Part shown: positions 36,098 to 36,546 of the stretch, piece after piece
How positions within the stretch are numbered: the first letter of the stretch is position 1
How the letters are laid out: every line of letters begins with the position of its first letter
NCBI GenBank assembly: GCA_964367355.1
Contig: CAYIWY010000002.1
Location: forward strand, 71,296-135,295
Source: an uncultured Gammaproteobacteria bacterium
GTDB lineage: Bacteria; Patescibacteriota; Microgenomatia; Woykebacterales; RBG-16-39-9b
Direction: 5' to 3'
DNA: 64,000 nt
Translations under genes and position numbers: made by a program
Notes under the pieces: model-generated
Seen by the model: only the letters and a program-made list of their open reading frames with translations
Told to the model about the DNA's origin: nothing
The model's database searches: none

Positions 36098-36154
36098 CTT
36101 AACAGGGCTCCTTCCAAACTGATTCTACCTTCTACGACAAGCAAAGGTCAACTA

Positions 36155-36183
36155 TTGACAAGCACGCTTGCTTGGTAAATAAT
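36155..36183 (+). promoter_or_regulatory. Consensus-like promoter TTGACA-N17-AATAAT for the candidate ncRNA
   Basis: ttgacaagcacgcttgcttggtaaataat. No protein gene follows. Confidence 0.45.
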
Positions 36184-36189
36184 AAAGTT

Positions 36190-36508
36190 GCGACATGCGG
36201 TACCGCCTGTAAAACCTTGCGTCACCCTCGGAGAGATTGTGAGCAGGATTGATTTCCCAAAATTACAGGCAATTAGGACCGCCCATAGCGAGCTCTCAAC
36301 AGAGAGCGCCCAGAGCATCGGTCAGGAACTGGAATTGAAGGAGAAACTCCATATATGGCTGTGCTTATGAAAGGGAAAACATTCGCGCCGGTTACAGCGA
36401 CGATCTAAGCCAGCAACGTTAGGCTGAAAATCTTCGATAGGTCTGTAACACACACGAAGCCCCGTCATTACCTTCTGGTTTTGATGGGGCCTCTCTTTTT
36501 TTATTTTC
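36190..36508 (+). ncRNA. Candidate structured ncRNA of unknown class (~320 nt)
   Basis: GC-rich non-coding island between convergent genes. Upstream perfect -35. Ends in intrinsic terminator GCCCCGUC-N16-GAUGGGGC + U9. Internal hairpins (GCUCUCaacaGAGAGC, GCGGUACCGC). No convincing ORF. Confidence 0.4.
36459..36508 (+). terminator. Rho-independent terminator
   Basis: gccccgtc ... gatggggc then ctctctttttttatttt. Confidence 0.65.
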
Positions 36509-36546
36509 GCAAGGCCAAAAAGCCGTGGATTTTTACCCTCGGAGGT

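Follow-up and report, generated by a model that had tools for sequence, protein, structure and literature searches.

Background

Very short open reading frames (ORFs) are known from several kinds of structured bacterial RNA. Leader peptides are encoded within RNA leaders, e.g. mgtL in the mgtA leader and those of the trp, his and thr attenuators. The type I toxin mRNAs (hok, tisB, aapA1, txpA) are long folded messengers with a very small ORF and a translation start that is occluded by pairing, and they occur patchily in variable genome regions. The dual-function small RNAs (sRNAs) likewise encode small proteins, as in RNAIII/delta-haemolysin (26 aa), SgrS/SgrT, SR1/SR1P and VcdRP/VcdP (29 aa) (reviewed in PMC12612679 and PMC12310071; see also PMC8672173 and PMC3526287). 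Here we report on a unit of ~315 nt located in an intergenic gap of contig CAYIWY010000002.1, of which a 64-kb stretch (64,000 nt, hereafter the window) was analysed. A first-pass annotation of the window had described this unit as a structured RNA without a credible ORF. Our comparative data suggest that it may well be a highly structured small-ORF mRNA, or else a dual-function RNA, encoding a micro-peptide of 17-29 aa, and a stand-alone gene in groundwater Microgenomates, a group of the candidate phyla radiation (CPR).

Among the described systems the dual-function sRNAs appear to be the closest kind, without homology to any of them. Like these, the window unit is a stand-alone promoter-to-terminator unit of a few hundred nt with much conserved secondary structure, a short ORF (<50 codons) within the structured RNA that is led by a Shine-Dalgarno (SD) sequence, and an apparently lineage-restricted distribution. 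It differs from them in having no sequence or covariance-model similarity, in its CPR host and in being without a known base-pairing target; moreover, unlike the conserved peptides SR1P and SgrT, its peptide is unconserved in the middle. With the type I toxin mRNAs it shares the long folded mRNA, the very small ORF, the pairing of the translation start and the patchy occurrence in a variable region, whereas its SD is exposed and not sequestered. Its likeness to leader-peptide and riboswitch-like leaders lies in the structured leader, in a ~17-codon ORF whose translation would remodel downstream helices, and in the terminator that follows soon after. Finally, RNase P RNA, transfer-messenger RNA (tmRNA), signal recognition particle (SRP) RNA and 6S RNA fall into a similar size range and are likewise GC-rich against an AT-rich genome, with a strong promoter and a strong terminator.

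Promoter, terminator and homologous units

The gap (36098-36546) measures 449 bp and is flanked by convergent ORFs at 35456-36097 (+ strand) and 36547-37263 (- strand); its GC content is 0.47-0.51, compared with 0.28-0.39 in the flanks, and both the ~450-bp convergent gap and the GC enrichment described in the first-pass annotation are thereby borne out. Homologous units, which share the promoter, the terminator and the fold with the window unit, are present in three further lineages of the same groundwater Microgenomates group. These divergent homologues were found through the flanking proteins, i.e. by synteny via a pilO-like protein, which is 94% identical (aa) in both L026 (SRR22388223) and L016 (GCA_964364815.1) and 68% identical in L058 (ERZ27247924). 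Identical copies of the window unit occur on many Hainich and Logan contigs, together with three low-coverage variants (L008, L009 and L010). The unit faces the 3' end of the pilO-like gene in all four lineages and is directly adjacent to it in three, an 80-aa gene intervening in L026. On the promoter side the neighbour varies: the window has a 213-aa gene there, and L016 and L026 have a divergent ORFan.

The unit begins with a sigma-70-type promoter (TTGACA-17-AATAAT, 36155-36183, + strand), as had been noted before; it matches the consensus at 11 of 12 positions and is conserved in L026, L016 and L058. Equally good promoter sites at that spacing number two in the 64 kb, against 0.62 expected, and the spacer carries an inverted repeat, CAAGCA..TGCTTG. 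Transcription would start near 36190. With promoter and terminator as bounds, the predicted transcript of ~315 nt extends from ~36190 to 36503 on the + strand.

At the other end lies a conserved intrinsic terminator (36459-36502, + strand) with a covarying 9-bp stem, GCCCCGUCA/UGAUGGGGC (36459-36467/36482-36490), that includes one G-U pair. Its top consists of 14 nt with a 3-bp inner helix (ACC-UUCU-GGU), and 3' of the stem follow CUCUC and then U7, A and U4. The earlier description of a strong intrinsic terminator is therefore sound, and its details, an 8-bp stem followed by U9, have to be corrected. Our simple terminator scan handled loops of ≤8 nt only and did not list this terminator, the loop of which is longer. 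Between lineages two neighbouring pairs of the stem have exchanged places (U-A/C-G to C-G/U-A), and L016 and L058 have A-U instead of the G-U pair. The top itself (36468-36481, UACC-UUCU-GGUUUU) is near-invariant across the homologues while the stem beneath it covaries; this is unusual for a plain terminator, and the top may be an extra contact site.

Since promoter and terminator are conserved in the four lineages although the promoter-side gene differs, the unit has every appearance of an independent transcription unit on the + strand, with a promoter and a terminator of its own that do not depend on its neighbours.

Secondary structure and covariation

The several internal hairpins that had been seen by eye belong to a strong predicted fold, with a minimum free energy of -108 kcal/mol and z = -4.5 on the + strand of the window, compared with z = -3.0 on the - strand. 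The corresponding z-scores for the homologues are -3.7 (L026), -3.7 (L058) and -2.0 (L016). For the comparative analysis a covariance model was built from a hand-specified structure and used to realign all lineages. The 5' half comprises 53 pairs, and 95.7% of the cells are paired compared with 30-45% when the partners are slid; four pairs are altered on both sides, and the covariation score was equalled in 3 of 500 shuffles. For the 3' half (30 pairs) 91% are paired across five sequences, with changes on both sides in H7 (A-U to G-C), H8 (G-C to U-A, in L016 and L058), the apical stem and the terminator. In all, about ten base pairs show compensatory changes. The first-pass annotation had proposed that covariation be sought among relatives, and compensatory changes were found, in four lineages only. 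These include two close ones, so the statistics are weak, and the fold has good support from covariation, short of proof given the small sample. Because several of the G-U pairs are possible on the + strand only, this is the functional strand.

The 5' domain (36197-36282, + strand), the best-conserved part of the RNA, is predicted from covariation to consist of helices P1 and P2 and a three-way junction with the hairpins P3 (36215-36247) and P4 (36249-36260). P1 is formed by GCGGU-A-CC paired with GG-ACCGC, and P2 by GCCUGUAA/UUACAGGC. The perfect 10-nt palindrome reported previously, GCGGTACCGC, is indeed present at 36197-36206. It is not selected as such and represents the 5' strand of the long-range helix P1, because the P1 pair 36201-36278 changes between lineages (U-A in the window, C-G in L026, U-G in L016). 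The same region holds a mini-ORF of five codons (36195-36212, ATG CGG TAC CGC CTG TAA, MRYRL), starting ~5 nt from the predicted 5' end, that every lineage retains, as MRHRL in L026 and with a TGA stop in L016; since it overlaps fully with P1/P2 and has no SD, it is probably no more than incidental to these helices.

Downstream of the junction domain there is a dispensable hairpin, GCUCUC-AACA-GAGAGC (36292-36307, + strand), which is absent from L016, and then the putative translation-initiation hairpin (36313-36366, + strand), where three pairs are changed on both sides, one in H5 and two in H6. The outer helix H5 pairs 36313-36324 with 36356-36366 and thereby the U and G of an AUG plus codons 2-4, while the inner helix H6 (36330-36336 with 36345-36351) displays GAAGGAGA in an 8-nt loop. 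The predicted probability of being unpaired in the window is 0.98 for the SD loop and ≤0.02 for the U and G of the AUG. A second long hairpin (36391-36449, + strand), in which compensatory changes occur, is built from H7 (GUUACAG/CUGUAAC), H8 (CGACGAU/AUCUUCG) and an apical stem; it encloses the final five sense codons of the small ORF described below, with the stop codon at the top of H8. Candidate loop-loop contacts (P3 GGAGA with P4 UUUCC, the SD loop with the terminator CCUUC, and AGGAUUG with the terminator loop) were dropped since by eye they are not conserved across the lineages.

A small ORF within the structured RNA

The first-pass annotation had dismissed the single 60-aa ORF of the gap and concluded that no credible ORF was present. 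Its judgement of the 60-aa ORF holds, as this ORF is unconserved, being broken by a 28-nt deletion in L016 and having no start codon in L058; a 17-codon ORF preceded by AAGGAG was overlooked. This ORF (36355-36408, + strand), identified by comparison of the lineages, encodes MAVLMKGKTFAPVTATI and reads ATG GCT GTG CTT ATG AAA GGG AAA ACA TTC GCG CCG GTT ACA GCG ACG ATC TAA. Its ATG at 36355 is the first start codon past an in-frame TAG at 36286, and the SD AAGGAG (36338-36343, + strand), situated in the H6 loop 11 nt upstream of the ATG, is invariant in the four lineages.

The ORF of L026 is identical to that of the window. In L016 it has 27 codons (MAAKKGKSTTSIVALFDVTSPVAAGTI, stop TAG) and in L058 29 codons (MAVLFVVNTVVVIPSIEQTDTTSPVTATI, stop TGA); the reading frame is intact through the insertions of +30 nt (L016) and +36 nt (L058), and the stop codon, TAA, TAG or TGA in the window, L016 and L058, respectively, occupies one aligned position. 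Synonymous changes affect three successive third positions in the KGK codons (AAA GGG AAA to AAG GGT AAG), and further ones are GCG to GCA or GCT, CTT to CTA, and CCG to CCA (L008). As a rough estimate, the chance that the pattern of frame and stops arose without selection on the open frame is ~0.001-0.005, counting 1/9 for two in-frame indels and ~0.05 for two stop-to-stop substitutions, together with inserts that lack internal stops. SD, ATG, frame and stop position are hence conserved in all four lineages. The earlier annotation held that a conserved protein-coding frame would speak against a non-coding RNA; such a frame is in part what we find, with 17-29 codons, an SD, in-frame indels and three stops at one position, and the label non-coding is doubtful for this unit. 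The peptides gave no match in Pfam or NCBIfam.

Distribution and divergence

Relatives with PilO proteins that are 50-70% identical (L023-25, L027 and L061) have other genes at the site and no copy of the unit as judged by nhmmer and two covariance models; the same searches found no copy in the relatives reached via the 213-aa protein at 55-64% identity (L017, L018, L059 and L060). Among genome contigs the exact two-block pattern GCGGTACCGCC..TTAGGNCCGCC gave four chance matches only, and among metagenome contigs the pattern ACCGCCTGT..TTAGGNCCGCCNATA gave the Hainich variant contig only. Both exact patterns were too strict, since L026 (GCGGCACC) and L058 (AATTGGACC) each fail one or the other. 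The apparent narrow distribution of the unit is therefore not established. Viral contigs (three pattern scans) as well as phage and plasmid sequences (BLAST) gave no real match. Eight IMG/VR contigs (L031, L032, L034, L035, L043, L048, L051 and L053) match the loose pattern ACCGCCTG..TTAGGNCCGCC with an identical span of 104 nt; they share a conserved sequence of their own, which according to nhmmer is unrelated to the RNA unit.

The rates of change differ between parts of the unit and between lineages. Compared with L058, nucleotide identity is 89% for the 5' domain and 88% for the SD hairpin region, while it is 69% for the adjacent pilO gene; it falls to 52% in the ORF, and over the ORF and 3' hairpin range it is 52-58%, largely owing to indels. 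Compared with L016, the flanking genes are 82-89% identical and the 5' domain only 72%. As the divergence of the RNA is discordant with that of its flanks, the L016 RNA being far more diverged than the L058 RNA, these data suggest that alleles of the unit have been exchanged by recombination or horizontal transfer. Neither pattern of divergence is that expected of a housekeeping RNA.

The variant contig L008 carries, at 1314-1383 (~36535 in the window), ~53 extra nucleotides between the terminator of the RNA and the stop codon of pilO, which in part repeat the local GAGGGTTTTTACCCTCG. There is also a run of 10 N within the small ORF on this contig.

Comparison with known RNA families

No match at the gathering threshold was obtained for the whole 64 kb with the 4227 families of Rfam 15. 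Lowering the threshold to E≤10 for 35950-36700, for 36180-36365 and for the L016 homologue gave chance fragments only, namely SOX2OT, the ClpQY_promoter model (on the terminator hairpin), HgcE and snoTBR5. The first-pass annotation had left undecided whether the unit was a new RNA or a divergent member of a known family and had named RNase P RNA, tmRNA, SRP RNA and 6S RNA as models to search with; none of the four matched. For RNase P RNA neither the RNaseP_bact_a nor the RNaseP_bact_b model matched, and the P4 strands (GAGGAAAGUCC / ACAGAA..CGGCUUA) are absent. A tmRNA was rejected because ARAGORN and Rfam were negative, there is no tRNA-like end, the 3' end is an intrinsic terminator and the ORF has a normal SD and ATG. 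The SRP model did not match either, and there is no helix-8 GNAR motif; GGUCAGG at 36320-36326 has no complementary stem or tetraloop after it, and L058 lacks the A (GGUC-GA). The fold is multi-domain (a junction domain plus three separate hairpins) and not the rod with a central bubble of 6S RNA, for which Rfam gave no match. Known riboswitches were likewise rejected, the 5' domain alone giving only a chance fragment of a long non-coding RNA in Rfam 15 at E≤10, and a resemblance to the T-box (GGUACCGC) is in the wrong position and without a model match.

Together with the conserved promoter and terminator and the covarying fold, these results support the first of the two earlier possibilities, i.e. 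that the unit belongs to no known RNA family and is a new RNA. The second one, a divergent RNase P, tmRNA, SRP or 6S RNA, fails on the absence of model and ARAGORN matches, on the architecture and on the absence of the unit at the syntenic site in neighbouring genera.

Host and neighbouring genes

The window sequence matches a Hainich groundwater assembly from the 0.1-µm filter fraction (ENA ERZ1292616). The host is a Microgenomates-type CPR bacterium from groundwater, because one homologue of the upstream 213-aa protein is assigned to Candidatus Levybacteria. This gene, on the promoter side of the gap, encodes a membrane protein on the + strand, and a csoR/cupredoxin/copA copper island lies immediately upstream of it. 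On the terminator side the pilO-like gene (238 aa, - strand) is the final gene of a long type IV pilus operon, and the genes beyond the 3' end of the unit are all on the - strand, none being found downstream on the + strand. No CsrA or Hfq gene was found within the 64-kb window, which carries no weight for a piece of that size. ARAGORN predicted neither tRNA nor tmRNA in the whole window. Other gaps between long ORFs reach ~870 bp, e.g. 18526-19296, 45846-46716 and 50460-51287.

Divergent from the unit, the promoter scan identified a putative relic promoter (TTGACC-18-TAGAAT, 36151-36122, - strand) and a relic SD (AAGGAG, 36113-36108, - strand) that has no gene behind it in the window. The upstream sequence is conserved in L016 and L026, where the same promoter sequence precedes a divergent ORFan (3876-4433, 185 aa, and 4509-5039, 176 aa, respectively). 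These two ORFans are 52% identical to each other, contain Cys-x2-Cys motifs and have neither a Pfam match nor database homologues; tblastn found no homologue of the ORFan gene in the window. It appears that the gene has been cleanly deleted in the window lineage, leaving promoter and SD as a relic at 36108-36151. Immediately after the pilO-like gene and on the same strand, several relatives also have a gene for a small protein of 63-81 aa without a Pfam match (L023 3851-4042; L024 3055-3300; L025 3652-3897; L026 3780-4022). This is the 80-aa gene located between pilO and the RNA unit in L026, and it is missing from the window.

Discussion

The reading that we favour, and to which we would give an even chance, is that of a structured small-ORF mRNA or dual-function RNA. 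Transcription would start at the strong sigma-70-type promoter, and the first ~90 nt would fold into the GC-rich P1/P2 stem capped by the three-way junction, as conservation and covariation indicate. In the next hairpin the loop would expose the SD, and the basal helix holds the start codon together with codons 2-4, a pairing that may limit or gate initiation. From there the ORF would cross a lineage-specific insert of variable length and stop at the apex of the second long hairpin, which a translating ribosome would unzip, and the intrinsic terminator would end the RNA. On the comparative data, selection seems visibly to keep the frame open and the RNA helices intact and not the middle of the peptide, which would mean that what counts is translation itself or else a peptide that evolves fast. 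For the conserved 5' domain a regulatory role or a separate function as RNA is probable.

Several observations weigh against a coding function. Between lineages the peptide has an unrelated middle, and its conserved ends coincide exactly with H5 (AUGGCUGUGCU) and H7/H8 (CCGGUUACAGCGACGAUC); moreover, the partner strand of the RNA compensates for one amino-acid change (ACA to GCA), so that the conservation of the peptide may be a by-product of RNA structure. The inserts of L016 and L058 themselves fold into hairpins, like the variable arms of structured RNAs, and the start codon is predicted to be base-paired. The SD spacing of 11 nt compares with the usual 4-8 nt in this genome, where the SD-bearing genes of the window use AAGGAGG or AGGAGG; most genes have no SD, a recognisable one being present ≤25 nt from the start in about 8 of 46 long ORFs. 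The organism is largely SD-independent, which limits the weight of any argument from the SD, and with four lineages, two of them close, the statistics are weak. The overlap of the conserved ends with helices, the hairpin-forming inserts and the rarity of the SD would suit a purely non-coding structured sRNA, a trans base-pairing or protein-binding regulator in which the ORF and the SD-like loop are incidental or the GGA loops are contacts to protein or rRNA, and so would the fact that the untranslated 5' domain is the best-conserved part (89% to L058 against 52% for the ORF) and that compensatory changes occur in the helices overlapping the ORF ends. Against such an RNA speak a frame held across indels of +30 and +36 nt, three stop codons sharing one aligned position, a run of third-position synonymous changes and a perfect AAGGAG followed by the first in-frame ATG. 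A search for duplexes with gene starts of the window, crude and uninformative as it was, showed no signal over background. We consider a purely non-coding RNA unlikely, while still the nearest competitor of a small-ORF mRNA.

The position of the unit, facing the end of the pilO-like gene in all four lineages and directly adjacent to it in three, raises the question of cis-acting control of the type IV pilus operon, with translation of the ORF or the state of the 5' domain deciding between termination and antisense read-through into the pilus genes. The short ORF that ends in a hairpin just before the terminator does resemble leader-peptide attenuators of the trp or mgtL type; however, an attenuator would have a same-strand structural gene downstream and mutually exclusive terminator and anti-terminator helices, and we find neither such a gene nor a conserved alternative pairing, nor a run of a regulatory amino acid in the peptide or an aptamer match in Rfam. 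With the 80-aa gene between unit and pilO in L026, and with a synteny that may reflect mere inheritance, we regard control of the pilus genes as highly improbable. A type I toxin mRNA, a long folded messenger that is mobile between genomes, sequesters its start codon and encodes a small toxic peptide, would account for the patchy distribution in a variable region beside ORFan genes, the divergence incongruent with the flanking genes and the paired AUG. Only the peptide of L058 is half hydrophobic, in its N-terminal half, and a membrane toxin would be longer or less polar than those of the window and L016, so the peptide is not consistently hydrophobic or membrane-spanning; furthermore, no antisense RNA or conserved antisense promoter was found inside the unit, the sole promoter-like site on the - strand (36556-36529) being in sequence missing from L016. 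A toxin mRNA is accordingly given very little credence. Least probable of all, to the point of being negligible, is a highly divergent RNase P, tmRNA, SRP or 6S RNA: genes of this kind typically resemble the unit in size (~315 nt), GC enrichment and strength of promoter and terminator, and none of the four is otherwise detected in the 64-kb window, but against this stand the absence of any covariance-model match at E≤10, the negative ARAGORN result, the lack of all defining motifs (P4-type motif, tRNA-like end, helix-8 GNAR motif, rod-with-bubble fold) and of universal conservation, given that relatives with a PilO identity of 50-70% lack the unit at the syntenic site and that it is more diverged than the flanking genes in the comparison with L016. 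Thus, the unit is not a missing housekeeping RNA and has no bearing on any long-standing open question.

The small-ORF mRNA reading brings together features in an unusual combination, in that conservation is higher in the 5' RNA domain (89%) than in the protein gene next to it (69%), and of the ORF only frame, start and stop are retained. It also illustrates that ORFs of fewer than 20 codons escape a judgement of 'no ORF' made by eye. The CPR/Patescibacteria are uncultured, and to our knowledge their regulatory RNAs and micro-proteins are almost unexplored; the unit would provide a candidate from this group, backed by comparative evidence, for which promoter, fold, SD, ORF and terminator are all defined. 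One may speculate further, although we think it rather improbable, that the 90-nt junction domain is a new sensor (of a ligand, a protein or temperature) that gates a micro-ORF with a freely diversifying middle, i.e. a CPR-specific cassette of riboregulator and micropeptide that is exchanged between genomes and always found where the type IV pilus operon ends, beside a metal-resistance island. Should this be so, the unit would represent a previously undescribed riboregulator-plus-micropeptide cassette.

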